64,000 nt of DNA, from assembly GCA_965203805.1 (NCBI GenBank), contig OZ241917.1, positions 2,400,001-2,464,000 of the forward strand, given 5' to 3'. This document shows positions 1-25,754 of this stretch, piece after piece (the stretch's first letter is position 1; every line of letters starts with the position of its first letter). The notes beneath the pieces were generated by a model that worked only from the letters and a program-made list of their open reading frames with translations, was not told the DNA's origin and ran no database searches. Origin of the DNA: Candidatus Latescibacterota bacterium (GTDB lineage Bacteria; Latescibacterota; UBA2968; GCA-2709665). Position numbers and translations under genes: made by a program.

Positions 1-21
1 GACCTCCCATTCTGAAACCTT

Positions 22-3000
22 GTTTCAATCCTTGTTCTGATGGAAGATTCTCTCTGAGCACTGACCGGCGCGGATGCTGTTATCAGCACGGTGATGTTTC
101 AATCCTTGTTCTGATGGAAGATTCTCTCTGAGTCCGGACAGCGCCGCGCGGTCCGCCTGCAGCGAGCGGAGTTTCAATCCTTGTTCTGATGGAAGATTCT
201 CTCTGAGCGATCCCGGCTGAAGGCGTTGCGTGGTTGATTCCCAGGGTTTCAATCCTTGTTCTGATGGAAGATTCTCTCTGAGCGGCGCACGGCCCGCGAA
301 CAGCAGGCCCTGATCGAGTTTCAATCCTTGTTCTGATGGAAGATTCTCTCTGAGCAGGGGGCGGACGTTTGCATGCTCCGGGAGTATGCCATGTTTCAAT
401 CCTTGTTCTGATGGAAGATTCTCTCTGAGAGGCAGGGCTCGGGATTTGCACGGACCAACGTTGCAGTTTCAATCCTTGTTCTGATGGAAGATTCTCTCTG
501 AGTCCAGATCGTATCGAACAGCGGCGAGCCATTCTTTTCGTTTCAATCCTTGTTCTGATGGAAGATTCTCTCTGAGCGGAGGCCGGGAATATCACGGCGC
601 GGACGCTGGCGAAGTTTCAATCCTTGTTCTGATGGAAGATTCTCTCTGAGACGTCGTGCAGCTCTGTTATCCGACGTCGGAAGCCCTGTTTCAATCCTTG
701 TTCTGATGGAAGATTCTCTCTGAGAGTGCGCCGTATGCGGTTATGTCAAGTGCAGGTGCCGTTTCAATCCTTGTTCTGATGGAAGATTCTCTCTGAGGTG
801 AGGAACGGCGGAACAGACCACCCCAGACATAACCCGTTTCAATCCTTGTTCTGATGGAAGATTCTCTCTGAGACCCGGAACAGGAACCGGGTGACAAAGG
901 TATCGAGGTTTCAATCCTTGTTCTGATGGAAGATTCTCTCTGAGACCCGGAACAGGAACCGGGTGACAAAGGTATCGAGGTTTCAATCCTTGTTCTGATG
1001 GAAGATTCTCTCTGAGATATGACCGCGAACCATATCACGACGTCGGTATTTAGTTTCAATCCTTGTTCTGATGGAAGATTCTCTCTGAGCACAAAGGCGA
1101 AAGCTACGGATGATAGCTTTGAACCTGTTTCAATCCTTGTTCTGATGGAAGATTCTCTCTGAGCGGTGCCGGATGCGCCGGCGAGGCCCGTCGCTTTCGC
1201 CCGGTTTCAATCCTTGTTCTGATGGAAGATTCTCTCTGAGTTCTGTATCCGCCGTCTGACGGATGGCCTGACGTGCTGTTTCAATCCTTGTTCTGATGGA
1301 AGATTCTCTCTGAGCATTCAGCGGTTGGGCCGCGTCATACGCGCCTTCTACGGGTTTCAATCCTTGTTCTGATGGAAGATTCTCTCTGAGGTAGGAAGCT
1401 GCTTTGGTCCCACTGTCCACACGGTCCAGTTTCAATCCTTGTTCTGATGGAAGATTCTCTCTGAGTGTTGAAAGTCTCCCCGTCCCCGAAACCCTGGCTA
1501 TCCGTTTCAATCCTTGTTCTGATGGAAGATTCTCTCTGAGCGCGCTGCAGTTCGGCCTTGTGGAAGTTCGCGGCTGTGTTTCAATCCTTGTTCTGATGGA
1601 AGATTCTCTCTGAGCCTGGTTCCTGCGGGCCCTGTTCTGCCGGGTGAAAAGTGTTTCAATCCTTGTTCTGATGGAAGATTCTCTCTGAGCCGGTCTGGGG
1701 AGTCGATTGAGAGGCTGGTTTGCGAATGTTTCAATCCTTGTTCTGATGGAAGATTCTCTCTGAGCGGGGCGGTTGAGCGTTGTCATCGCCGCTATCGACA
1801 AAATGTTTCAATCCTTGTTCTGATGGAAGATTCTCTCTGAGGAAAAGCACCTGTGGCGCACCGCCCGCATTTTGGCCGAGTTTCAATCCTTGTTCTGATG
1901 GAAGATTCTCTCTGAGTTTTTGCGGCTCCCGCCGAAGGTTGTTGACCAGATCATGTTTCAATCCTTGTTCTGATGGAAGATTCTCTCTGAGTAACAGTGG
2001 GGGATTCGCTGGCAAGGCCCCAAACGCCTGTTTCAATCCTTGTTCTGATGGAAGATTCTCTCTGAGCTATTCGCATCGCTTCGCGCAAGCGGTGGTTATT
2101 TACGTTTCAATCCTTGTTCTGATGGAAGATTCTCTCTGAGCGTCTCGAGGTGGTCACGGTCGTACTACATCGATGCCGTTTCAATCCTTGTTCTGATGGA
2201 AGATTCTCTCTGAGTGAAGGTCGCGCAGCTTTATGCGTACCGCGAGGGGGTCGTTTCAATCCTTGTTCTGATGGAAGATTCTCTCTGAGAGCTTACGCTG
2301 AAGCGATCCCAGGCAATCACAGCCTCGGTTTCAATCCTTGTTCTGATGGAAGATTCTCTCTGAGGATCATGACGCCGGGAAGCGCATTCGATATCACGAT
2401 GTTTCAATCCTTGTTCTGATGGAAGATTCTCTCTGAGCGGCGCCGTCGTCGACGTCCTCCGCGATGCGCCCACCGTTTCAATCCTTGTTCTGATGGAAGA
2501 TTCTCTCTGAGGCACGGGCGCGAATCAATTAGAGCCTCTCAGGTCGATGTTTCAATCCTTGTTCTGATGGAAGATTCTCTCTGAGTAGTCGAGCACATCC
2601 AGGCAGGAGAGTATGCATGGGACGTTTCAATCCTTGTTCTGATGGAAGATTCTCTCTGAGTCTGGGAGTATGTCATGGAGGGTGCATTGATCCGCGTTTC
2701 AATCCTTGTTCTGATGGAAGATTCTCTCTGAGGGCCTCCAGATGCGCCGGTAACCGCCGGCGGTTCTTGTTTCAATCCTTGTTCTGATGGAAGATTCTCT
2801 CTGAGCGCCGTAGGAGATTTTTGTGAGTCTTCAGGGAGAGAGTTTCAATCCTTGTTCTGATGGAAGATTCTCTCTGAGATCGTGGCGGGTGAAAGTGCAG
2901 CGTGTGCGACGTGTCATGTTTCAATCCTTGTTCTGATGGAAGATTCTCTCTGAGTGAGCTACCCGCCAAAATCGTCAAGTATGCTTCTTTAGTTTCAATC

Positions 3001-3847
3001 CTTGTTCTGATGGAAGATTCTCTCTGAGCCTGTCAGGCGTTGTGCGATACGAGCTAACGGTTTACGGGGTTTCAATCCTTGTTCTGATGGAAGATTCTCT
3101 CTGAGCGGGCGCGGTTCGCCCGGATTCTCAAATGCTTAGAGTGTTTCAATCCTTGTTCTGATGGAAGATTCTCTCTGAGTCTCGTCCAGTTCGAGGGCGC
3201 GGACGTGTGCATGTGTTTCAATCCTTGTTCTGATGGAAGATTCTCTCTGAGCATGGGGGGCCTCTGATGCTGAAGAACTTAACGCCTCTGTTTCAATCCT
3301 TGTTCTGATGGAAGATTCTCTCTGAGCTATCACAGACGGAACTGTCACAACTACAGATGATGGGTTTCAATCCTTGTTCTGATGGAAGATTCTCTCTGAG
3401 CTTGAATATAAGCGGCCAACACACGGCCAAAATTGAAACCGTTTCAATCCTTGTTCTGATGGAAGATTCTCTCTGAGGATCTGGCCGACGTCGGCGGTCC
3501 TGGCGTGTTCCGGATGTTTCAATCCTTGTTCTGATGGAAGATTCTCTCTGAGTTCTCGTCCAGTTCGAGGGCCAGGACGTGTGCATGCTGTTTCAATCCT
3601 TGTTCTGATGGAAGATTCTCTCTGAGGGTCGAATGTCATTTCCCCGACTACAGGACTAAGGCGTTTCAATCCTTGTTCTGATGGAAGATTCTCTCTGAGA
3701 GCAATGGCTATTATTGCAGGTTCGGAAGATATAGCGTTTCAATCCTTGTTCTGATGGAAGATTCTCTCTGAGGTACCCTGCTCACTGGCTATTCGCTCAA
3801 TCCGGTTAGCGTTTCAATCCTTGTTCTGATGGAAGATTCTCTCTGAG
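22..3847 (-). CRISPR. CRISPR array: 52 copies of a 37-bp repeat and 51 complete spacers of about 35-40 bp
   Basis: Repeat GTTTCAATCCTTGTTCTGATGGAAGATTCTCTCTGAG on the + strand, counted by eye from 22 to 3847. Its reverse complement ends in the canonical ATTGAAAC. The AT-rich leader and the cas genes lie to the right, so transcription is on the minus strand. The array may continue left of the window. Confidence 0.99.
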
Positions 3848-4018
3848 CGCATTTTATCCATATCTTCCGAAATTCCAATGGGTTGAGTGGAATAACCGGA
3901 ACTCGTATTCATCCGTAGACCGTACTTTTTTTCTCTGATACAGTGTCATTCTCACCTCCATTGCAGGCCGAATCTCTCACAACATATTATTTTTCAATAG
4001 GATAGGCTGTAAATTTAA
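3848..4018 (-). promoter_or_regulatory. CRISPR leader
   Basis: AT-rich non-coding stretch between the cas4 stop and the first repeat. Confidence 0.8.
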
Positions 4019-4615
4019 TCAGACACAGATATTTCTATAACAACAGTCCCCACATTTGACACGATGAGGTGTTTTTCTGGGCAGACGTCCAGTCTCAATG
4101 ATGTCGAGGATCTCAGCCACAGCAGTCTTTGCTGCGCTTTCTTCGGCCTCGCCAATGGGGACTTCGACCAACCGACTGCCACCGCGCACGTACGCTATGT
4201 AACCACGCGTTACCGATTTTCGATAGACTTCGCGGGCGAGAAGCCCATAGAGAGTAATTTGGATTCGATGAGTCTTGAAAGCATTCTCTCGATAGGGCGT
4301 ATACTTGTAATCGAGCGGTGCAAACGTCCCATCGTGCAATGTCAGGACTTCATCGACAACCCCACGGACACTTAGCGCGGGTGACGCCAAATACACGTTG
4401 AGATCTCTATCTACGGCACCGATTTTCTTCCGCAGGTAGGATCGGTTTTCGCGTTCCCTGCGTTTGTGGACTTCCCGCCCCTTGAGCACCTTGAAGCGCC
4501 GGTCCTCAAACTGCGGGATATTAAGCACGTTCATGAAATACGTGAAACGGGGACAATAGACGTGCTCGATCACCTCCGAAGGCGTGATCATGATTGTCGT
4601 TTCGGTGTCGCTCAC
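4019..4615 (-). CDS. cas4: CRISPR-associated exonuclease Cas4
   Basis: YCPR, RGVVD, DYK, QITLY and C-terminal CGDCCYRNIC Fe-S/RecB motifs. Confidence 0.96.
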   Translation of the reverse strand: MSDTETTIMITPSEVIEHVYCPRFTYFMNVLNIPQFEDRRFKVLKGREVHKRRERENRSYLRKKIGAVDRDLNVYLASPALSVRGVVDEVLTLHDGTFAPLDYKYTPYRENAFKTHRIQITLYGLLAREVYRKSVTRGYIAYVRGGSRLVEVPIGEAEESAAKTAVAEILDIIETGRLPRKTPHRVKCGDCCYRNICV

Positions 4616-4917
4616 AGGAATAGACTCTTTACTTCGTCGGTGACCAGTTTCTGGTCAAACGCCTGGCCTTGTAGTACGACTTTGCGGAAGTCCATGGCGC
4701 ACATGGGGAAAATATACACGCTGTCGGTTTCCTCATCTATGTGTTCCTCAATACGCATCGAGAGTTCATCCAGCCGGTTGTGTTTGACCGTCCCGAGAAA
4801 GACGGACTTTTGTACTCGGTAGAGGCCGGCTTCTTGACAGGCTTTGCCCACCTTCCGCCGACCCTTGTCGGCTGAGATATCGTATAGGACCCAGGTAAGG
4901 GATTCGTCAGATTTCAT
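4612..4917 (-). CDS. cas2: CRISPR-associated endoribonuclease Cas2
   Basis: VLYDIS, RVQKSVF and DSVYIFPMC motifs; 101 aa. Confidence 0.97.
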   Translation of the reverse strand: MKSDESLTWVLYDISADKGRRKVGKACQEAGLYRVQKSVFLGTVKHNRLDELSMRIEEHIDEETDSVYIFPMCAMDFRKVVLQGQAFDQKLVTDEVKSLFL

Positions 4918-5912
4918 GTTCTCATCTCTTTGGTGTTCGGATCGTTGGCAAGCAGTTTATTAGCGATGCGGTGCAGATCGAATTGTATGCTGTCGCGCCG
5001 AGTGATGTTTCGGCCCCGGTAGCGGGTGGCTTCGTCGAGATACGTCGTGAACGCTTCGATGAGGACGGCCTTGCCCTGTTTGTTCAGTGTGAGTCCATTT
5101 TGGAGGTTGTCGAACAGGTCTTTTTTGATCTTGCGCGCAGAGAAAAGTCCAAGCACCGTCTCGTCCGCCCAAATCCGGTATTGCTCGATAAGGTCAAATA
5201 CAAGGGATGGTTTGTTGTAGTGATCGGTATGAATGAACCCAATGTATGGATCGAGTCCGGCGAGCAAACAGGCTCGTTCGACCGTACCATACAGGATGCC
5301 ATAGGCATAATTGAGCAGGCAGTTGAATGGGTCTTTGGCCGGATTGCGGCTCCGGCCTTCAAACCGGTAGTGGATTGGTAAGAGTAATGATACAGCCGAC
5401 CAGTAGGTTCGTCCGGCACGCCCCTCCAGGCCGAGAAGGCTCTGGCGTGCGGAATCAATTTTTCCTGTGACGTCCTGCGTTTGATCTTTGAGCGTCTTTA
5501 GACTACCGATCGCTTCGGTCAGCTGCGCTGAAAGGCGCGTCCGACGATCGCGCATGCGCGCCAGCAGCGCAATCTGGTTGTCAAATTTGCGCTCCACCCA
5601 GCCGAGGGCAAGCCGCATGCCAAGGTCGGTTTCCGCGGCCGCAAATTGCATTCGTCGTATCGCGGTTGTTGAACCTGGTCGGCCGTGCCACACCCGACCG
5701 AACGGGTCGCCGTACTTGTCCAGAAAGAGGATGTCGATATTCTTCTCAACAGCAAGTTGCACCGCATCGGACGAGAACGCCGCGCCCGTTGAAATCAGAA
5801 TGGAGCGTACCTTGCGAGCGGAGATTTCGGTCGATTGTCCATCAACTTTGATGTTGAACAATTCCCCGCGCCGGCTCAGATACGCACCGAATGTGTTGAG
5901 TACGAGTTGCAT
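4914..5912 (-). CDS. cas1: CRISPR-associated integrase Cas1
   Basis: LGLEG...YW, DPFNCLLNYAYGIL, GLDPYIGFIH and LVFDLIEQYR motifs. The start is taken at MQLVLN, whose ATG overlaps the cas3 stop (TAATG). Confidence 0.97.
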   Translation of the reverse strand: MQLVLNTFGAYLSRRGELFNIKVDGQSTEISARKVRSILISTGAAFSSDAVQLAVEKNIDILFLDKYGDPFGRVWHGRPGSTTAIRRMQFAAAETDLGMRLALGWVERKFDNQIALLARMRDRRTRLSAQLTEAIGSLKTLKDQTQDVTGKIDSARQSLLGLEGRAGRTYWSAVSLLLPIHYRFEGRSRNPAKDPFNCLLNYAYGILYGTVERACLLAGLDPYIGFIHTDHYNKPSLVFDLIEQYRIWADETVLGLFSARKIKKDLFDNLQNGLTLNKQGKAVLIEAFTTYLDEATRYRGRNITRRDSIQFDLHRIANKLLANDPNTKEMRT

Positions 5913-8218
5913 TAGAATAGCCTTAAAGCAACGTCTGCAGCGAAGCGTCCGCCTAAGTGTGAGTCGTATTCCATTTCGCAGAACGAAAACAAGCCGTCTC
6001 CTTCTCTCAAGTAGTGTTTTTTTATATACCACAAAGGCATTTTTAACTCGTAAAGCCGTCGATCCTTGGGATCCGCCAAACCTATTACATCGTCCTTGAA
6101 TTCGTGAGGAATGACGCTTTGTTGTTCGTAATTGGAGACCCGAGTACTCCGTCGCTCATCGTGACCACGTACGGGATCTAAAATACCCGAAAAGCGCCTC
6201 TGATCTTGCATTACGGTTTGCTGGGCAAGGATGAAATCCTCGTGTGTATTAATCTCAGTATGGGCATAAATGCTCTCTACCAAATCAAGCAGATCCTGTT
6301 CGGTTAGCCGCCTGTTGTCCATATCTGCAAATGCACGGAAACTACGGTTTAAGAGAGCCTGTTCCGCGCTCTGCTCAATATGCATATTATCGAAATATAT
6401 CCTTTCCGAGCCAGGTCCTGGACGAAAGATGACGACCTCACCATCACGCCTCCTCTTTCGGTTGACTCGTCCTGCCCGTTGCGCTAGCGCGTCGGGGGGC
6501 GCGCATTCGGTAAAAAGCACATCAAAATCAATATCTAGAGCGACTTCTACCACTTGTGTCGCAATCAACAGCGTAGGCTCTTTATTTAAAATAAACTCCT
6601 CTTTGTCTTGTCTGTCTTTGAGAATAAACTTGGAGTGATAACAGACAGGCTGAAGCTCTTCAAGAGCTTCGGCTAATTCTTGACATCGTCTCACGGTATT
6701 TACCACTACCAAGACTCGTTTTCCGACAATGACCTTATCCCGGATCAGGTCCAATCTATCGAGAAGATCGCCGTCAACAACCCGGAACAAACTTCTGGAT
6801 TCTTGCAGCAACTCGTGATCTCTGACGACCTCCGTATGTGCCGATTCCTCTAGCGCAGTCATTAGACTGCATTCCAAGAAACGAGGCAAAGTCGCGCTCA
6901 TAACCATGAATCGTGCTCCGGCGGCTCCCAACTGTTCAATAGCTTTGAATATTAGGCCCGCCGTATAGGGATCGTATGCATGAATTTCGTCCAGAATAAT
7001 TGCGGAGTCACAGGCGGCAAACGCCTTAAGAGGCCACAGTCCTGCATGAAACAAAGTCGTCAAAAGTTGATCAACGGTCCCTACTGTCACGGGTGGGATA
7101 AAATGGCGGTCAAAGAGCGCACGCGAACGCACGTCCTCTCTGCCGTCGCCGACTGCATCATCCATCTGAGCTTGCTCTCGCCGGTTTACTAAATCCGCCA
7201 TTGAGTGCGTCAGACCGACTGGGTGACCATAAGAAGAAAAAAACTGACGCATCCGTTCATACAAACTGTTCGCCGTTACCATGGTAGGAAGGAGGTAGAG
7301 GATTTTTCCAACGTGACCTTGTTCCACCTGCCCCAATGCCCACAGCAAGGCTGCTTCCGTCTTGCCGATGCCCGTAGGCGCGACTGCGACTACATGGCCG
7401 TCTATACTTCCACAAGTACGTTGGAAATCACGAAACTCCGAAAAAACCCAGCCTTCGCGTTTGCCTTTTTCTATCAGATAGGAATAGACTTTTTTAGGGC
7501 CTACATCTACAGTAAATCGGTAATCGAAGCTGTGCGCCGAAGCGTGCCAATCGGCATTTATCAATAGTCCCTTCATCAGGATAAACAACGCTCGGACAGC
7601 GTCGATGTCTGTCACCCTTCTTTTCAAGCTACTAACGAAGGACGGTCGCTTTTTCGCCAGCTCGCTACACTTCTCGTAATCCAATGTCGGAGGGCAAGCA
7701 CCGAAATCGTCAAAGATCTTCTCGACGACACGTTGCCCTTCTTCAATGCCCCCTTCAACCCATGTAAGAGCACCAGGGTTTTTGCCCTCGCGCTCGAAAC
7801 GAGTCAATTCTCCATCAACCGGTTTGTGATGGCCGAGAACTACCATCGCTTCCGTTACTCCCGTGCAGATAGCTTCGGTCAATTGGCCATGAGTCTGTCG
7901 CAAATTGCGGGCCGCTAGAAAAACAAAGGCAGTAGATGCGTATTCATGGCGAAAATTGGCTTTGATGGCTCTCTGTCTATCAACCTCAGAGGAGGCGTAC
8001 ATAATGCGTTGGAAATTCGCCGATAGCTTGCCCATATCGTGAAAAGCTACACACAAAAGGCTGCTTAGCAGAAAGCGATCTCGGTCTATGCTGTGGCGAT
8101 CACATAGTCGATTGATCGCACCGCTGTGTCTATCGATCAATTGCCTCCAAGCCAAATAGACGCTCCAAACGTGCTGCTCGTACGTTTCATCGGGCCTGCA
8201 CTTAGCGAGAAAGATCAT
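5912..8218 (-). CDS. cas3: CRISPR-associated helicase/nuclease Cas3 (HD + SF2)
   Basis: HDMGK, HEYAS, GHH and ADW HD motifs; APTGIGKTE, DEIH, MSAT and QRAGRVNR helicase motifs. Confidence 0.97.
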   Translation of the reverse strand: MIFLAKCRPDETYEQHVWSVYLAWRQLIDRHSGAINRLCDRHSIDRDRFLLSSLLCVAFHDMGKLSANFQRIMYASSEVDRQRAIKANFRHEYASTAFVFLAARNLRQTHGQLTEAICTGVTEAMVVLGHHKPVDGELTRFEREGKNPGALTWVEGGIEEGQRVVEKIFDDFGACPPTLDYEKCSELAKKRPSFVSSLKRRVTDIDAVRALFILMKGLLINADWHASAHSFDYRFTVDVGPKKVYSYLIEKGKREGWVFSEFRDFQRTCGSIDGHVVAVAPTGIGKTEAALLWALGQVEQGHVGKILYLLPTMVTANSLYERMRQFFSSYGHPVGLTHSMADLVNRREQAQMDDAVGDGREDVRSRALFDRHFIPPVTVGTVDQLLTTLFHAGLWPLKAFAACDSAIILDEIHAYDPYTAGLIFKAIEQLGAAGARFMVMSATLPRFLECSLMTALEESAHTEVVRDHELLQESRSLFRVVDGDLLDRLDLIRDKVIVGKRVLVVVNTVRRCQELAEALEELQPVCYHSKFILKDRQDKEEFILNKEPTLLIATQVVEVALDIDFDVLFTECAPPDALAQRAGRVNRKRRRDGEVVIFRPGPGSERIYFDNMHIEQSAEQALLNRSFRAFADMDNRRLTEQDLLDLVESIYAHTEINTHEDFILAQQTVMQDQRRFSGILDPVRGHDERRSTRVSNYEQQSVIPHEFKDDVIGLADPKDRRLYELKMPLWYIKKHYLREGDGLFSFCEMEYDSHLGGRFAADVALRLF

Positions 8219-8946
8219 CGAGGTACCAGTGTAATTCGGTCGTAGCCTGGGCCTAGGATTTTGGTACTTAGACTAAAGCCCTTGATTGGGTCTTTAACTT
8301 GTATCGGATGGCCGATATAGGTAAAAAACTCCCGTCCGACAATCGTACGTCGCTCGCCTTCAAAACTGAAGCGTACAGGTAGATTGAACACTTGGGGCGC
8401 ACGTATTGACTCAGTGAGAGGTAGCTCTAAGACGGATTTATCTGCTTCGTATGCTCCTGTAATATCCTGAGGCACTGCACAAAAATGGACCGATTCTATT
8501 GGTTCCCAATCTGCCTCCGATAATCCGACGGAGCACAAGACGAGCAGGCTATCGCTGTGACCAGCGGTAAGCGCATATACCGGGTCGTTGAACGCTTGGG
8601 CAATTCGCTGAGCAGTGGATTCTTCTTCAGCACAGTACCCTAGACCAATAGATAGATCGACAACATATTCCCTTAGTATAACATCTGAGATCACTTCCCC
8701 GGACTTCACTTTGCGGTACTTCCAGAGGTCCTTAAAGGTGCCGCGATCTCTACCCCCGACGCCAACGAGGATGTTATACTCCTCAACGAACTGTTGACTC
8801 TCCTCCATACCATACCCGAGTGCCGCCCCTAGCAATCCGATACAGCTTGTATAGGACGGAAGGGGTAGCGTTTTATGGAACGTATGTGTTTCAGGTAGGC
8901 GAAAAGAGGCGGTTTCCGCGAATGCCTGGATCAATACTAGATGCAT
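8215..8946 (-). CDS. cas5: Cas5 (type I-B)
   Basis: N-terminal ASFRLP...TLPLPSYTSCIGLLGAALG RAMP motif; position in the operon. Confidence 0.93.
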   Translation of the reverse strand: MHLVLIQAFAETASFRLPETHTFHKTLPLPSYTSCIGLLGAALGYGMEESQQFVEEYNILVGVGGRDRGTFKDLWKYRKVKSGEVISDVILREYVVDLSIGLGYCAEEESTAQRIAQAFNDPVYALTAGHSDSLLVLCSVGLSEADWEPIESVHFCAVPQDITGAYEADKSVLELPLTESIRAPQVFNLPVRFSFEGERRTIVGREFFTYIGHPIQVKDPIKGFSLSTKILGPGYDRITLVPR

Positions 8947-8949
8947 GCC

Positions 8950-9873
8950 TTACACTCCGTTTTGCCGATAACAATCTCTCACCCAACACTTCAGCTGTAC
9001 GAATGCCTCACCGATGGTACAGGCTCTTTCGGGTACACCATCAAATAAACCTGAACGCACCCCAATTACAGAATCGATCACTACAGCCTCATGGTCTTTT
9101 AGCACTTCTTCTAAGACCAACCCGTTAAGCGTTTGTCCTTTGACTTGGACGGATTCCAAAAAGATCGGTGCTTTGACTGAAGTAAGGGCAGCAGCAACGA
9201 ACTTGGGTGTCAAATCTGCCAAGAATCGACTTTGCCGCCCGGTGCTCCACAGATTCTGCAGAGCTTCTAGCAACGCAGTAATGCGCTCTATCTTAAGAGA
9301 GGTTTTCAATTCTCTTTCAAAACCGTCACCTGCCCCTACACGATCAAGTTCGACGAGAATGGTGCCCCGATAGAGACCGCCGTGAATTTCCGTTTCGTAG
9401 ATATTGGGATCGCCACCCGCTTTGACACTCATGTAGTTGGTGCCGAAATCTAAGTCTCCTTGGTAAGGCTGTATGGCGACGAGTGGCGAAACTCGCACGG
9501 GGGAAGTTCGTTTGTCGGTCTTTCCTCTTGCTCCCTGACTCTCCCCCGCTTGGGCATTCATGTAGCCGAATAGATCATCATCAATATATGAGACTGGATC
9601 GCATTCCGTTGTCGCTGCTCCCTTTTTGGCCGCAGCCACAACGCCCTCGGACAACTCGTGGCCCATCGTGTCCAACTGATCACGCAATGCCCTGCGTAGC
9701 GCCTGTGAGGAGACATAGGGATATTCCCTGATGCCTTCGTTTGTTTCCCTGGTGAGCTTTTTGATACTTGATATATTATCCGCTTCCTTATCACTCCCGT
9801 TGAGGCTGGCGAATGAAACGGGCGTTAGGTAGGTTACAGTTAAGGCTTTCGCTTGAGTATGATCTTTGCTCAT
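8950..9873 (-). CDS. cas7: Cas7/Cst2/DevR backbone subunit (type I-B)
   Basis: PYVSSQALRRALR, DDDLFGYM, KRTSPVRVS and IYETEIH motifs. Confidence 0.95.
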   Translation of the reverse strand: MSKDHTQAKALTVTYLTPVSFASLNGSDKEADNISSIKKLTRETNEGIREYPYVSSQALRRALRDQLDTMGHELSEGVVAAAKKGAATTECDPVSYIDDDLFGYMNAQAGESQGARGKTDKRTSPVRVSPLVAIQPYQGDLDFGTNYMSVKAGGDPNIYETEIHGGLYRGTILVELDRVGAGDGFERELKTSLKIERITALLEALQNLWSTGRQSRFLADLTPKFVAAALTSVKAPIFLESVQVKGQTLNGLVLEEVLKDHEAVVIDSVIGVRSGLFDGVPERACTIGEAFVQLKCWVRDCYRQNGV

Positions 9874-10172
9874 TGCTTCTCTCCTTTCTTGTCGTTTGAG
9901 GCAGTACCAGCGTTGAAAGAATTGAGAGCCGCCAACATGCAGAAACCGCGAAACTCTTCGAAGTTAGTTTGATTTAGTTGACCTTCGTACGTGGCTGGGG
10001 GTACGGCAATTTTCCACTTAAACTGAAGTCGGTTGAGTTCGCTGAGAAAATCTGGAACCGTTCGACACTTTCTCAGTGCGAACAGACTTCCCTTTTTGCC
10101 GCCTTCCTTGGCGATGACCGAGCCAATGCGTCTCCCAAGAGTTACGGCTGCTTCACGCGCGTGTGTTTCCAT
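9870..10172 (-). CDS. cas11: Predicted internally translated Cas11 small subunit (C-terminal 100 aa of Cas8)
   Basis: In-frame ATG (METHAREAA...) preceded by AAGGAGG inside cas8 (reads GAAAGGAGGAAGT-ATG). Confidence 0.7.
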   Translation of the reverse strand: METHAREAAVTLGRRIGSVIAKEGGKKGSLFALRKCRTVPDFLSELNRLQFKWKIAVPPATYEGQLNQTNFEEFRGFCMLAALNSFNAGTASNDKKGEKQ

Positions 10173-11597
10173 ACTTCCTCCTTTCTTCCGCAGGACATCC
10201 TCGTAGTGAATGACGAAATCGAAAAGTGGTGCAAAGTACTGCCGTCCTTGTCGGTTTACGTGATAGGCGAATGCTTCTGCTTGGCGTAAGATGGATTGTT
10301 TACGCAGTACCGACCCAAGCACACGATCCCGTTCTAGAGAGCGGTTTTCATTTCGTTGCGCTGTGAAGTCGATCATTGAATGTGCGATGTCTTTCCAAGC
10401 TACTCCTTGTATTTCGGCTCCTCCTGGCTTTTCGATATGTTGGAATAGACGGAACAGATAGACCACATCGTCAAAGAGCCAGACCTGTGTGGGCATCTGG
10501 GTATTTCCCTTCTGTTCGGCTGAGATTAAAGCGAAGGAAAGAGGTGCATCGCTCCACACCACATCCAAAAACTCGCTATAGCCATCGTCTTCGATGGCAT
10601 CTCTTCGATTCCGGGTTAGGTGCGTGTAAACGCGGTGCATAAAAGAAAACCCTACTTCCCGGGGATGGGTGAAATATCCTCCTATCTGCGACTCAAAGTT
10701 GCGCCAAAAATTGGGTTCCCACTCAACTATGCTTCTCAGGCTGTCATAGACTTGATCCATTTTGAGCAAGTCGGGTGCGAAAGGGAGAAACATATGCAAG
10801 CGGTTGCCCGCTTGGCTGAAAAATCCGTTGACTGGAACGAACTTGCCGACATAAGCGCATCTCCAGCATACTTGGGCTACTTCGCGAGTTAAATTAAAAA
10901 AAGACTTAACACCAGAATCGCCAGTTATGAAAGGAAAAATCGTCTGGTTGACCTTTTCCATCGACGAAGAGTATTGACCACAGAGAAAACAGGGAGCAGC
11001 TTTTAGTTTTCCTCCTTTAACATTAATATTCACTTTAGGTCGCACTCTATTGGGTTCGTCCAACAGCATGCCTGCAGGAGGTCCGGCCTTGAGTTTTTGC
11101 TGTTCCAAGAATCCATCCAATCTCTCTTGCAGATGGGCATATGATTTGGGTAACAGGCCAGGCTGTTTTTTGTCGTTCCAACGGACTTGGCCACCGGCTG
11201 GTCGGGGAGCCTTGTCAAAAATGAAAGCGGCAATGCCTCGTGCTTTTCGCTTGGGAAATGTTTCAAACTGATCTTCTGTGGAATCGTAATAGAAATTCCA
11301 AGAAGATTTATCATCTCTTTGCTTCTGCGTAGAGACATCATAATAACGCTTTACTAAGCGGCCGTATGCCCTTTCCAAGACTGCCTCAACATCCTTCGCC
11401 TCACCGCCGATTTTCAGACCATCCTTTTCTAAACTTACGCAAACCGGGTATTCCTCACCGAGGTGGTCGTAAGACTCCTTATCACCGCGCTGTGGGTCGG
11501 CGTGGACATTCCCAACTATGCAGCGATATATACCCAACACCCCTGAGTCGTTCCAGAAATTGTTGATTCTGGGAAAGGATATCTGGACTTCGCTCAT
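9870..11597 (-). CDS. cas8: Cas8 large subunit (Cst1/CXXC_CXXC-type, I-B)
   Basis: N-terminal FWNDSGVLG, paired CFLC and CWRC zinc motifs; lies between cas6 and cas7. Confidence 0.85.
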   Translation of the reverse strand: MSEVQISFPRINNFWNDSGVLGIYRCIVGNVHADPQRGDKESYDHLGEEYPVCVSLEKDGLKIGGEAKDVEAVLERAYGRLVKRYYDVSTQKQRDDKSSWNFYYDSTEDQFETFPKRKARGIAAFIFDKAPRPAGGQVRWNDKKQPGLLPKSYAHLQERLDGFLEQQKLKAGPPAGMLLDEPNRVRPKVNINVKGGKLKAAPCFLCGQYSSSMEKVNQTIFPFITGDSGVKSFFNLTREVAQVCWRCAYVGKFVPVNGFFSQAGNRLHMFLPFAPDLLKMDQVYDSLRSIVEWEPNFWRNFESQIGGYFTHPREVGFSFMHRVYTHLTRNRRDAIEDDGYSEFLDVVWSDAPLSFALISAEQKGNTQMPTQVWLFDDVVYLFRLFQHIEKPGGAEIQGVAWKDIAHSMIDFTAQRNENRSLERDRVLGSVLRKQSILRQAEAFAYHVNRQGRQYFAPLFDFVIHYEDVLRKKGGSMETHAREAAVTLGRRIGSVIAKEGGKKGSLFALRKCRTVPDFLSELNRLQFKWKIAVPPATYEGQLNQTNFEEFRGFCMLAALNSFNAGTASNDKKGEKQ

Positions 11598-11600
11598 CGC

Positions 11601-12275
11601 CTACTCCTCAACTCTTTGAATGGTGCCAAATCCACGAGCACTCTGTTTGCCAACACCCCACCAGTTGGGCAATGCGAAATTGACGTTGAAAGTACCTGAG
11701 ATGCCTAGCAATTCGACGCCATTCTTTATCTCGATCTGCTGCGTACCATCTATTCGCATTGAAGAGACGATCCTTTCTTCTACCGATAAACCGATTGATT
11801 TACATAAAGACAAGATATTTCCAACTAAAATTCTACTGAGGATGTTCTCTCGCCCAGTATTGCTCTTCGTACTGATAAAGCGTTTGTAGTTGAGCTCATT
11901 GAGGGCTAGCCAAGGCGTGATGAATCGATATGCCAGACGTTTTTTCGTCGAGCCTATTGGGACTTGACCAGTCGCTCTTTTACTATCGAGAACTTCGATG
12001 CGTTCTCTATCTATATCTATGGCGTCCGGCAAATCGACAGCCTGTAACAAGAACGCTCCCTTCTCCAGTCCCATGATTCTCCCTGTACCACTTATAGTTT
12101 TGTATTGGATTAAAGGGTGCTGGTAGATCAGACCCATATTTCCGTGGTGGTGAAATTCCGCGCGATTGCGGTATAGGTTACCGAAGAAACCACGTAATTT
12201 ACGTGTTTCATTCTTTCGCAATGGTCTCATGCAGTAGAGCGTAATGGCGGTCAAATCGCATATAGTTTTGCTCAC
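11601..12275 (-). CDS. cas6: CRISPR-associated endoribonuclease Cas6
   Basis: LRGFFG, HPLIQYK, YRFITPWLALN and C-terminal G-loop GVGKQSARGFGTI; GTG start. Confidence 0.92.
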   Translation of the reverse strand: MSKTICDLTAITLYCMRPLRKNETRKLRGFFGNLYRNRAEFHHHGNMGLIYQHPLIQYKTISGTGRIMGLEKGAFLLQAVDLPDAIDIDRERIEVLDSKRATGQVPIGSTKKRLAYRFITPWLALNELNYKRFISTKSNTGRENILSRILVGNILSLCKSIGLSVEERIVSSMRIDGTQQIEIKNGVELLGISGTFNVNFALPNWWGVGKQSARGFGTIQRVEE

Positions 12276-12780: not shown

Positions 12781-13338
12781 TCATCCGATCCGCGCCAATG
12801 CGGTCGTCAGCGCCTCAGCGAGCATTTCGGTCTTGTACTCCCAACTCCGGCGTGCGCTTGGACTGATACACTCGATGGCCTTTACGCCAGCGCGCCTGCA
12901 AGCACCTGCTGCGACCGATCCGAGTGCGATCACCGTTCGGCCTTCGACTTCATGCCGGGTGATTCTGTCGAAGGACTCGTCGACATGCCGTCGCGGGAAC
13001 GGTGGTCCCTCCTTGTTCGGCAACAGATGAAACGCTTGCGTTACATAGATGTCCGCACGGGTGAGAATCGCGCGATCCAGGGCCAGCGTCAGCACTTTGT
13101 TGAAGGGCATACTCGGCAGCCAACCCTGCTCCTTCAGCACGTCTCGATGCACGCGGACCGACGGTGCGTCGAGCCAATAGTGGGCCACAAGCACCGGACC
13201 CGTCTCGGAGTTCGACACCATCTCGCAGGGTGTAACCCACTCGCCGTCGAACCCGACATCAGAGAGCGTCTTGTACTTGTGCTTGTATCCTGAAATTACG
13301 AACTCTCGGCGGCGGGCGATAATTTCCGATCTCTTCAT
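12781..13338 (-). CDS. Uracil-DNA glycosylase superfamily protein (divergent)
   Basis: DIYVTQAFH, VIALGSVA and SPSAR resemble UDG-like motifs (YxTNA, VIALG, HPSxR). Confidence 0.6.
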   Translation of the reverse strand: MKRSEIIARRREFVISGYKHKYKTLSDVGFDGEWVTPCEMVSNSETGPVLVAHYWLDAPSVRVHRDVLKEQGWLPSMPFNKVLTLALDRAILTRADIYVTQAFHLLPNKEGPPFPRRHVDESFDRITRHEVEGRTVIALGSVAAGACRRAGVKAIECISPSARRSWEYKTEMLAEALTTALARIG

Positions 13339-13419: not shown

Positions 13420-14052
13420 CTAACGTCGCGACGGATTGGTTTTCTCAACAGCATTCCTGGCGGCGTGGCTGGCCTCACCGACGGCATCCCTAACCGCGCG
13501 TCTGGCTGCCCTTTCGGCTTCGTAGGCGGCTTCCCGTGTCTTGCTGGCGTCGTCATACGTTTTCAGGGTGGCCCGATAGTTCTCCCAGGCTGCGATGTTT
13601 CTCTCCCGGCCCGTTTCGTATATCGCTCTGGCAGCCTTCGCGGCGGCATTTCTGGCGGCGATTTCCGCCTCGAATGCGGCATCGTATTTCATCCTGGCAG
13701 CTTTGAATATCTGCAGGGCGAACTCATAGTTCTCCCCGGCCGCCGCAACACGCCGCTCCCGATCGGCTTCGTAAATCAGGCGAGCGTCCCTATAAATCAC
13801 CCAGGCGTTTCCGTATACCTCCCTGGCGTCACTTCGGACCCGGCGCCGGGAGAAAGGCGACCTCCGTTTTTCAAACAACGTCGCATTTCCGCCTCTGTTG
13901 GCAGCAAGGTGTTCATACAGGGCGACAGTCCATGCGATTTCCCAGGCGTCGCGTTCGGCTCCTGCCGCTTCCGGCGCTTCGTTTTCGAATGGGGTCGCGT
14001 TGATTGCAAGCATGGTGACGGCTAACACGACGTATCGGGCTGTGCGCATCAT
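13420..14052 (-). CDS. Hypothetical secreted Ala-rich helical repeat protein
   Basis: GGAG RBS before MMRTARYVVLAVTMLAINA (signal-like); internal ~50-aa duplication (ARLIYEADRERRVAAAGENY / ARAIYETGRERNIAAWENY). Confidence 0.6.
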   Translation of the reverse strand: MMRTARYVVLAVTMLAINATPFENEAPEAAGAERDAWEIAWTVALYEHLAANRGGNATLFEKRRSPFSRRRVRSDAREVYGNAWVIYRDARLIYEADRERRVAAAGENYEFALQIFKAARMKYDAAFEAEIAARNAAAKAARAIYETGRERNIAAWENYRATLKTYDDASKTREAAYEAERAARRAVRDAVGEASHAARNAVEKTNPSRR

Positions 14053-14379
14053 GTTCTTTTCTCCTGGCTGTCGTCTTGTGGCGTGTTTTCCGGACAAGAG
14101 TTGCACCCGGTGCGATTTTTGGGCACGGGTAATGCTCAGGTACGGAACCCACATCGACGGTAGATAAAATCGAGTGCGTATGTGCTGCTCGGGAAGTAGT
14201 CTGGAATTGTGACTTCAACAAAAGCTGATTTATCTTCAGTCCGAGTTCGCCGTCCACGTGTTGAGAAGCCCGTTGCGATATAGCAGCGGCGATAAACCTC
14301 CACTGTTTACTGATCCTGGTAGTACATCGCGCCCATCGGGCCTATCCTCTCGTATGGGTTCCGTCGCCCCCATGTGCAT

Positions 14380-14408
14380 ATTATAGTGAAACTTTGTGCA
14401 GCATGCAA
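14380..14408 (-). promoter_or_regulatory. Sigma70-type promoter (segment C, copy 1)
   Basis: TTGCAT-17 nt-TATAAT on the minus strand. Confidence 0.65.
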
Positions 14409-14804
14409 GGGATTGTCGCGCTACGTTGGTCAAGGTACAGCCATCAGCAGTTGGCTTGAAAAAAGTGAAATCCACTAAGCCCACATGCCGACGGAAATCC
14501 GAAGTGAAACCGGATAATGACATAGACGTCGAGGGCAGGCGCCCTCGTTCCCAGGTGTCGCAAGATTCGACAGTTGGAGAATGGCGCGCGTGCGAAATGT
14601 CGCAAAATGCGACAACGGTGTCATAGCACGGCCGCTCGCATCGACCGTTTCTCGAGCCGGCGTCGGTCCCGCCATACACGCTTCCCGCCGCGAACATGCC
14701 GGTCGCGACCTCACGCCTGAGGTCTTCCGGCGCGAGGACTCGGCATTGCCCTATCTGCCGATCCACGGTTTCATTTCCAGCGAGTGCTTCACGCTGAGCC
14801 GCAT

Positions 14805-15168
14805 CCGCTGACGTCCACGAGGCATATGGAAAAGCGTTGCTTTTTTCTCCCGGGTTGGCTAAACTCTCTTCAGCGACCAGAATGGGCCGGTGCCAACCGA
14901 CCCGGGACAATGTCCCTGGCCGCTATTTTTTGTACACCATGCTTCCACGAATTTTCCTTTCCTACGGGCGACCGGCACCGGACCGGTCTCGGAGTTCGAC
15001 ACCATCTCGCAGGGTGTAACCCACTCGCCGTCGAACCCGACATCAGAGAGCGTCTTGTACTTGTGCTCGTATCCTCGCGCCCATCAGGCCTATCCTCTCG
15101 GATGGGTTCCATCGCCCCTATACGCACATTATAGTGAAACTTTGTGCAGCATGCAAGGGACTGCCGCA
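14805..15168. repeat. Mosaic duplicate made of segments A, B (fragment of the UDG-like gene) and C
   Basis: 14805-14940 matches 12536-12671; 14975-15075 matches 13191-13291; 15075-15168 matches 14327-14419. Confidence 0.9.
15128..15156 (-). promoter_or_regulatory. Sigma70-type promoter (segment C, copy 2)
   Basis: Identical TTGCAT-17 nt-TATAAT on the minus strand. Confidence 0.6.
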
Positions 15169-24707: not shown

Positions 24708-25754
24708 ATGAAAAGCAACCCATTGTGCGTGTGCCTGACCGGCATTCTCCTCTTCTTCGTGTTCGCATATCCGGGCCCGTCGTGGGCAACGCCGGAGAGC
24801 CAGGCCGCGGCGCCCTTTCTTCTCTTTCAACCCAGCGCGCGTTCCGCTGGAATGGGTGAGGCCTATATCGCGATCGCCGACGGCGCCAATGCAACCTATT
24901 ACAATCCAGCCGCCCTGGCAGACGACACAAACAGGCATATGAGCACAACGATGTACAAGCCCGTTCCATCGCTGGCCAGCGACATTTTTACCTCCTTCGG
25001 CGCGTACACGCAGCCGGTCGAAGGCGTGGGCAACCTGGGCTTAAGCCTGATCTACACGTCCCTCGGGTCCCAGCACCGCACCGACTCCCAGGGGCAGGAC
25101 CTGGGCAAATTCACGAGCTTTGGCCTGGCCGTGGCCGTATCCTATGGAACCTTTGTCGTGAAAAACGTTTCCGTGGGCGCGACCATGAAGTTTATTCACG
25201 AGAAACTGGCCAGTCAGGGCGCCGGCATCGAAAAGGGAAAGGGCGCCGGCACGTCCTTCGCCGGCGACCTGGGTTTCATGTGGAAAGCTTCGGATCGGTT
25301 CACCCTGGCCTGGGCGCTGCGAAACGTGGGGCCGAATATTACGTTCATCGATGCGGACCAGGCCGACCCGCTGCCGCAGAATTTCACGATCGGCATTGCT
25401 CACAAGGTGGTGCAGCGAGGAAATTCAACGCTGCTTCTTGCCGCGGACATCTATAAACCCCTGGCCGACGAAGGCTTTTTCTCCTTTGCCACGGGCTGGA
25501 GCGACCGAGCCGGTGGCGAGGAATTCAAGGACATCGACTACCATGCGGGCATCGAATGGACTTACAATCTTTCCGAAGAGTCCGCATTCGCCCTGCGGAC
25601 GGGGTATTTCCACGATGAGGACGGCGACCGGAAGAGCCCGACCTTCGGCCTGGGCCTGAAATACAACTGGGCGACGTTCGACCTCTCCTACTTTGCCAGC
25701 AGCGGCTCCGCCATCCAAAACGTCTTTCGATTCACGGGCGGCTTCTCATTCTAA
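24708..25754 (+). CDS. porV: PorV/PorQ family outer-membrane protein (T9SS-associated)
   Basis: FLLFQPSARSAGMGEA...YYNPAAL, NVGP, PLP and ALRTGY motifs; C-terminal F. Confidence 0.8.
   Translation: MKSNPLCVCLTGILLFFVFAYPGPSWATPESQAAAPFLLFQPSARSAGMGEAYIAIADGANATYYNPAALADDTNRHMSTTMYKPVPSLASDIFTSFGAYTQPVEGVGNLGLSLIYTSLGSQHRTDSQGQDLGKFTSFGLAVAVSYGTFVVKNVSVGATMKFIHEKLASQGAGIEKGKGAGTSFAGDLGFMWKASDRFTLAWALRNVGPNITFIDADQADPLPQNFTIGIAHKVVQRGNSTLLLAADIYKPLADEGFFSFATGWSDRAGGEEFKDIDYHAGIEWTYNLSEESAFALRTGYFHDEDGDRKSPTFGLGLKYNWATFDLSYFASSGSAIQNVFRFTGGFSF

Follow-up and report, generated by a model that had tools for sequence, protein, structure and literature searches.

Four overlapping spacers in the type I-B CRISPR array of a Candidatus Latescibacterota bacterium suggest repeated capture of one short stretch from related element copies

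Introduction

How does a single array come to hold several different versions of the same short target? The question is raised by a 64,000 nt stretch of contig OZ241917.1 from a Candidatus Latescibacterota bacterium (hereafter the window; G000:C1:2400001-2464000), in which positions 1-3847 belong to a CRISPR array that is apparently transcribed from the minus strand. The whole array (G000:C1:2399061-2403847 in contig coordinates) comprises 65 repeats, each 37 nt long, and 64 spacers with lengths of 35-40 nt; 51 of the spacers are visible in the window and 13 lie upstream of it. An original prediction, made from the letters alone, had held that four of these spacers tile one coding locus of ~70 nt in different variants and that they reflect repeated acquisition from a diversifying invader, consistent with primed adaptation. 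Judging by their alignment, we confirm that the four spacers come from one locus and one strand in differing sequence variants. What can most safely be said is that the adaptation module took up one and the same short stretch on no fewer than four occasions, from copies of an element that are related to each other and yet differ.

Overlapping spacers have been described before. The type I-C array of Legionella pneumophila str. Toronto-2005 holds two overlapping spacer pairs against LME-1, and in each pair the newer spacer fits the target perfectly where the older one has mismatches; this was read as repeated invasion by close relatives with possible priming, and the same or overlapping spacers within arrays were noted in general (Rao et al., 2016, PMC5071653). 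Priming has been documented for type I-B systems in Haloarcula and Pyrococcus, and the dominant pattern published for this subtype has new spacers on the non-target strand on the side of the protospacer-adjacent motif (PAM) (PMC7293040).

Results

With spacers numbered S1 to S64 from the leader, the four in question were found where they had been predicted on the plus strand, each between perfect 37 nt repeats: S47 (positions 355-392, 38 nt), S16 (2661-2695, 35 nt), S9 (3180-3214, 35 nt) and S4, the fourth from the leader (3553-3589, 37 nt). A single register on one strand brings them together in 71 columns, 8 of which are variable, in agreement with the ~70 nt shared locus proposed. S4 takes columns 0-36, S9 columns 1-35 and S16 columns 36-70, and S47, the oldest of the four (columns 14-51), bridges S4/S9 and S16. 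Over the whole overlap S9 and S4 are identical at 32/35 positions, with S4 extending 1 base past S9 at each end, and S47 is identical to S9 at 18/22, to S4 at 18/23 and to S16 at 14/16 positions; S4 and S16 abut with 1 base in common. The spacers spread from leader-distal to leader-proximal positions as predicted, from S47 of 64 through to S4. The 51 spacers originally given as the extent of the array are those seen in the window, and the number is corrected to 64 for the whole array.

Overlaps of this kind exceed chance in two all-versus-all comparisons of all 64 spacers. By a local ungapped score evaluated on 200 mononucleotide shuffles, 0.135 pairs with a score of >=14 were expected over both strands, and 7 same-strand pairs and 0 opposite-strand pairs were observed. 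By a whole-overlap binomial score evaluated on 400 dinucleotide-preserving shuffles, 0.037 pairs per array were expected at a score of >=6.4, and 6 same-strand pairs were observed together with 0 opposite-strand pairs, the opposite-strand comparison being the internal control for composition. One of the 6 is the identical duplicate S40/S39. This shuffled comparison had been set beforehand as the test by which the prediction might fall, and it gave no refutation. The S47/S16 pair scores 6.42, a level reached anywhere in 3.75% of the shuffled arrays (array-wide ~0.04); it is much better as a targeted test than this array-wide value, and S16 is the least secure member of the tile.

The differences among the four spacers were already present when the spacers were taken up. 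S4 and S9 disagree in three of 35 columns and their two ends are each offset by one base, and 2368 nt of repeat are unchanged, 64/65 repeats being identical and the sole deviant, the leader-distal terminal repeat, departing only in its first 4 bases. Since the repeats are invariant over this length and S4 and S9 differ, also at both ends, the changes must have entered with the spacers, and divergence inside the array is ruled out. Divergence rises with distance in the array, from 3/35 for S9/S4 to 4/22 for S47/S9 and 5/23 for S47/S4, and at the varying columns S9 agrees with S47 at two and with S4 at three. The 8 variable columns imply a sampling of at least three variants of the invader; because S16 overlaps with S4 and S9 by at most one base, the variant behind it could also be that of S4 or of S9. 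The four codon-level differences listed in the original prediction (gtg/gtt, gcg/cag, cgg/tgg and gcc/gtc) were recovered, and three more were found (gag/cag, ggc/ggg and a terminal c/t), so that the consensus peptide also needs E/Q at its fifth residue. With the orientation inferred below, variable column 48 is position 4 of S47 and variable column 35 is position 1 of S9, counted from the PAM-proximal end. Mismatches near this end, the seed, typically cause escape.

Whether the tile encodes protein was approached by scoring codons against the codon usage of the host, for which 1797 long open frames were the training set. In four of the six frames, no stop codon interrupts any of the four spacers. 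The frame of the original prediction, with tile peptides of 11-12 residues, has the best score of the six (-3.80 per codon). It is followed by the antisense frame that shares its codon boundaries (-3.91), and the remaining frames score from -4.10 to -4.85. In each of the two leading frames, 2 changes are silent, 4 are replacements and one is left unassigned. The predicted frame has the best codon score, but the antisense frame is nearly as good and the peptide reading is not unique. Codon usage supports the codon boundaries of the tile well and its coding strand only weakly. A plus-strand frame that would make all three S4/S9 changes silent was rejected, as it has the worst-but-one codon score and a stop inside S16.

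The tile has company in the same array, where 5 non-identical related pairs occur among the 64 spacers. S41 (798-835, plus strand) overlaps S60 (genome positions 2399396-2399431, upstream of the window) with 18/22 identical bases, and 3/4 changes are silent in a minus-strand frame. S48 (283-317, plus strand) lies in exactly the same register as S53 (genome positions 2399913-2399947, upstream of the window) with 22/35 identical bases. The same register is found in a spacer from the array of a same-genus genome (G003), which is identical to S53 at 30/35 positions, has the leader-side end in common with it and shows 3/5 silent changes in a plus-strand frame. Relatives that have the repeat core in common gave 13 array sets with 680 spacers in all, and 6 of these sets contain 8 non-identical related pairs.

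Other kinds of repetition were seen in these arrays. The adjacent spacers S40 and S39 (873-907 and 945-979) are identical at 35/35 positions, through duplication of a repeat-spacer unit or double uptake of one fragment. Identical duplicates are numerous in the arrays of relatives, one of which carries a duplicated block of seven units (L028, units 41-47 = 50-56). In another (L026 of genome G024), units 28 and 48 represent the same site on opposite strands, identical at 31/36 positions after reverse complementation and with the same start.

The array adjoins a set of cas genes. Between the newest repeat and cas4 lies an A+T-rich, spacer-free stretch of 171 bases (3848-4018, minus strand), on whose minus strand 3 promoter-like sites were counted where 0.7 are expected. 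When reverse-complemented, the repeat ends in ATTGAAAC, which we take to be an orientation motif. Among the same-site spacer pairs of this array and the arrays of relatives, 5/7 have the cas-side end in common, which is the end presumed to face the PAM, and this agrees with the orientation used. On the strength of these shared ends, the promoter-like sites, the presumed motif and the degenerate far repeat, the leader is placed at 3848-4018 and the CRISPR RNA (crRNA) on the minus strand.

By its gene content the locus is a type I-B CRISPR-Cas system, with a complete predicted operon that includes Cas3 and adjoins the leader (4019-12275, minus strand). NCBIfam models assign cas4 (4019-4615), cas2 (4612-4917), cas1 (4914-6032) and cas3 (5912-8218, core and HD domains), all over the cut-off. 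They are followed by cas5 (8215-8946), which exceeds the cut-off of the general Cas5 domain model TIGR02593 and stays below those of the type I-B Cas5 models, and by cas7 (8950-9873), over the cut-off of the NCBIfam type I-B Cst2/DevR model. A 575 aa cas8b-like large subunit (9870-11597) is placed by position, its Pfam CXXC_CXXC match being sub-threshold only, and cas6b (11601-12275) carries the Pfam Cas6b N and C domains; all eight genes are on the minus strand. In the genome itself the Cmr2 model gave no match and the Csm1 model one match of 27.5 bits against a cut-off of 170. Over the array there is no coding-strand bias (35/64 spacers, by a classifier that is 74% accurate on host genes). 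A type III partner or RNA targeting as the cause of the shared spacer orientation was ruled out, as no Cas10 exceeds its cut-off and no strand bias is seen.

We searched for the source of the spacers in several collections, using for the tile exact degenerate patterns only in IMG/VR, the JGI metagenomes and GTDB. In the genome itself, blastn-short with all 64 spacers found nothing longer than 26 bases outside the array, tblastn with the four short peptides gave chance matches of 4-7 residues only, and 745 spacers of relatives produced 2 matches of 19 bases. S4 reached a best E value of 0.4-0.5 against phages and plasmids; the whole array had no match among phages and, among plasmids, only Runella arrays with like repeats. 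The exact 19-mer common to S4 and S9 was found 0 times in IMG/VR, and the back-translated pattern of the S4/S9 peptide 0 times in IMG/VR, in GTDB genomes and in JGI metagenomes. The S47 peptide pattern had 1 viral, 5 metagenome and 1 genome match, all 7 with unrelated flanks and taken as chance. The loose likeness of the peptide to a phage terminase, put forward in the original prediction, is a conjecture: the tile peptides comprise 11-12 residues, and none of these 7 contigs carries the residues that flank the peptide. The S16 peptide pattern had 0 matches in IMG/VR; two patterns of the antisense frame, scanned in IMG/VR only, had 0 and 0, as did the S53-family and S41-family patterns in IMG/VR. 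In 53 genomes of the order, BLAST with S4 returned chance matches of <=24 bases only, the S4/S9 pattern with <=3 mismatches returned only the two spacers themselves, and BLAST with S53 returned matches in arrays only. A 137 aa protein of an IMG/VR contig (L034, 594-1007) and its near-identical metagenome copy (L041) have only the DVCM..EYA motif in common with the S47 peptide, a likeness that we judged to be chance.

The genome contains a second CRISPR-Cas locus outside the window (G000:C1:2900248-2903870, L049), with a 601 aa Cas4-Cas1 fusion (Pfam Cas4 and Cas1 domains) followed by 29 identical 36 nt repeats of another family and 28 spacers. None of these 28 spacers is related to the tile; two pairs of neighboring spacers are identical (11=12 and 25=26). 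The array repeat also occurs as two isolated, degenerate copies apart from the array, at G000:C1:2395089-2395125 and 2395619-2395655, ~4-5 kb upstream of the window, and scattered single-repeat matches over ~25 kb were seen in another same-genus genome (G008). Within the window, three open frames upstream of cas6b (12781-13338, 13420-14154 and 14236-14910, minus strand) have no Pfam or NCBIfam match, and an open frame at 24708-25754 (plus strand) has a Pfam match of 61 bits to the type IX secretion protein PorV, a protein associated with Bacteroidota that may give a hint of the host's phylum.

Discussion

We consider it probable, with a good measure of doubt left, that the four spacers are separate Cas1-Cas2-Cas4 acquisitions, all drawn from one stretch of 71 bases, probably protein-coding, in mobile-element copies that are related but not identical, with priming as the likeliest driver. 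Read by array position, the order of capture would be S47, S16, S9 and S4. Since no later spacer is identical to an earlier one with which it overlaps, the host must have encountered three or more sequence variants over the life of the array, and it would have been re-immunized at the same place. In the priming step, an older crRNA imperfectly paired with a drifted variant would recruit Cas3, nearby fragments would then be fed to Cas1-Cas2, and a scarcity of usable PAM sites in the vicinity would make it likely that one site is used again. The partial matches that such a step calls for are present, S47 being older than S16, S9 and S4, and S9 older than S4, with 2-5 mismatches in the overlaps. 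The clustering of all four spacers within 71 columns is far above chance. Priming is the leading idea and is compatible with the data. What the array itself shows is the common origin of the spacers, their differences as variants, their order and the type I-B machinery with Cas3, whereas priming, the PAM, the coding status and the nature of the target are inferred.

Several observations weigh against this account. Relative to S47, only S16 fits the published type I-B pattern, lying on the same strand and on the PAM side as in Pyrococcus; S9 and S4 share the strand of S47 and S16 but are found on their PAM-distal side, which is not the dominant geometry of type I-B priming (PMC7293040). The exact register of S53/S48 at only 22/35 identity points to site preference at least as much as to priming. 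The S47/S16 join, of 16 bases only, is the weakest link of the tile. No protospacer was found in any collection searched, so the data yield neither a PAM nor a map of the element, nor do they prove that the variants represent different genomes. The flanks read by hand from the overlapping variants disagree (TCC, CGG or CAG, and TTG in crRNA sense), and a PAM call from spacer overlaps was rejected on this ground. Of the repeated acquisition proposed in the original prediction, the part concerning variants of one locus holds, and primed adaptation is a compatible but hypothetical mechanism.

The strongest competitor to primed acquisition, which we regard as a possible but rather doubtful explanation, is a hot spot without priming, in which naive, Cas3-independent uptake takes the same site again through a strong local preference. 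Such a preference might come from a good PAM with favored flanks, from a nearby free DNA end left by packaging or injection, or from a stalled fork, and selection would then keep spacers against a conserved gene. The register is indeed re-used, within 1 base by S4/S9 and exactly by S53/S48 at 63% identity, and S53 and the G003 spacer have the PAM-side end in common across species; S9 and S4 also fall outside the type I-B priming geometry (PMC7293040). However, the offset overlaps are not re-use of a single site, as S47 is shifted by 13-14 bases from S4/S9 and by 22 from S16, and S60 by 16 from S41. Four spacers within 71 bases would require a very strong hot spot: by rough arithmetic, ~0.001 four-fold clusters are expected if all 64 spacers are taken at random from one 40-kb genome.

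An improbable explanation is that the variants are paralogous gene-family members or repeat copies within one element, in which case one or two encounters might account for all four spacers. The 9-22% differences between overlapping spacers are in the range of paralogues, but the spacers are spread over 44 array positions and so are not one burst, and random sampling of paralogues would not predict that divergence grows with array distance. An equally speculative idea, to which we give little credence, is that the type I-B adaptation module of this clade may pick fixed sites in conserved genes of an unsequenced element lineage by more than a short PAM. It draws on the tile, the two further families and the site shared with the array of another species; if it were true, the overlapping spacers would be the only surviving time series of the element's sequence drift. 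Chance resemblance, or duplication of a spacer within the array followed by mutation, is very hard to credit, since despite the identical S40 and S39 and the level at which shuffled arrays attain the S47/S16 score, 6 pairs were observed against 0.037 expected with 0 on the opposite strand, invariant repeats stand beside spacers that differ in sequence and, at both ends, in length, and for S4, S9 and S47 it was tested and rejected.

Compared with published systems, the favored account of repeated, probably primed acquisition is familiar. Natural spacers clustered on targets were reportedly taken as evidence of priming by Nicholson et al. 2019 (RNA Biol). That study reportedly resembles ours in that priming was deduced from the spacer positions of one array, and it differs in that mapped targets were required there, whereas clustering here comes from spacer-to-spacer overlap alone. 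The Legionella case likewise has overlapping targets of spacers within one array; unlike in our case, where no target was found in the collections searched, its target element is known, so that PAM and seed mutations could be read; it also concerns two pairs in a type I-C array, in contrast to a four-spacer tile in type I-B (PMC5071653). Type I-B priming in Haloarcula hispanica and Pyrococcus furiosus involves the same subtype and the same gene set with Cas3 and Cas4, with new spacers clustered around an existing protospacer; those were laboratory assays with mapped plasmids, whereas the array here is static and one of its three later spacers fits the dominant pattern of strand and side (PMC7293040).

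The tile is a real but ordinary further example of published overlapping-spacer behavior and establishes no new principle. It offers a clean natural case of one array that re-immunizes at a single site as the relatives of one element drift. Where a pair is usual, it provides four samples ordered in time, and parallel cases are present both elsewhere in this array and in a sister species. Should the element one day be sequenced, its escape changes could be followed in order along the tile and the PAM could be read directly.

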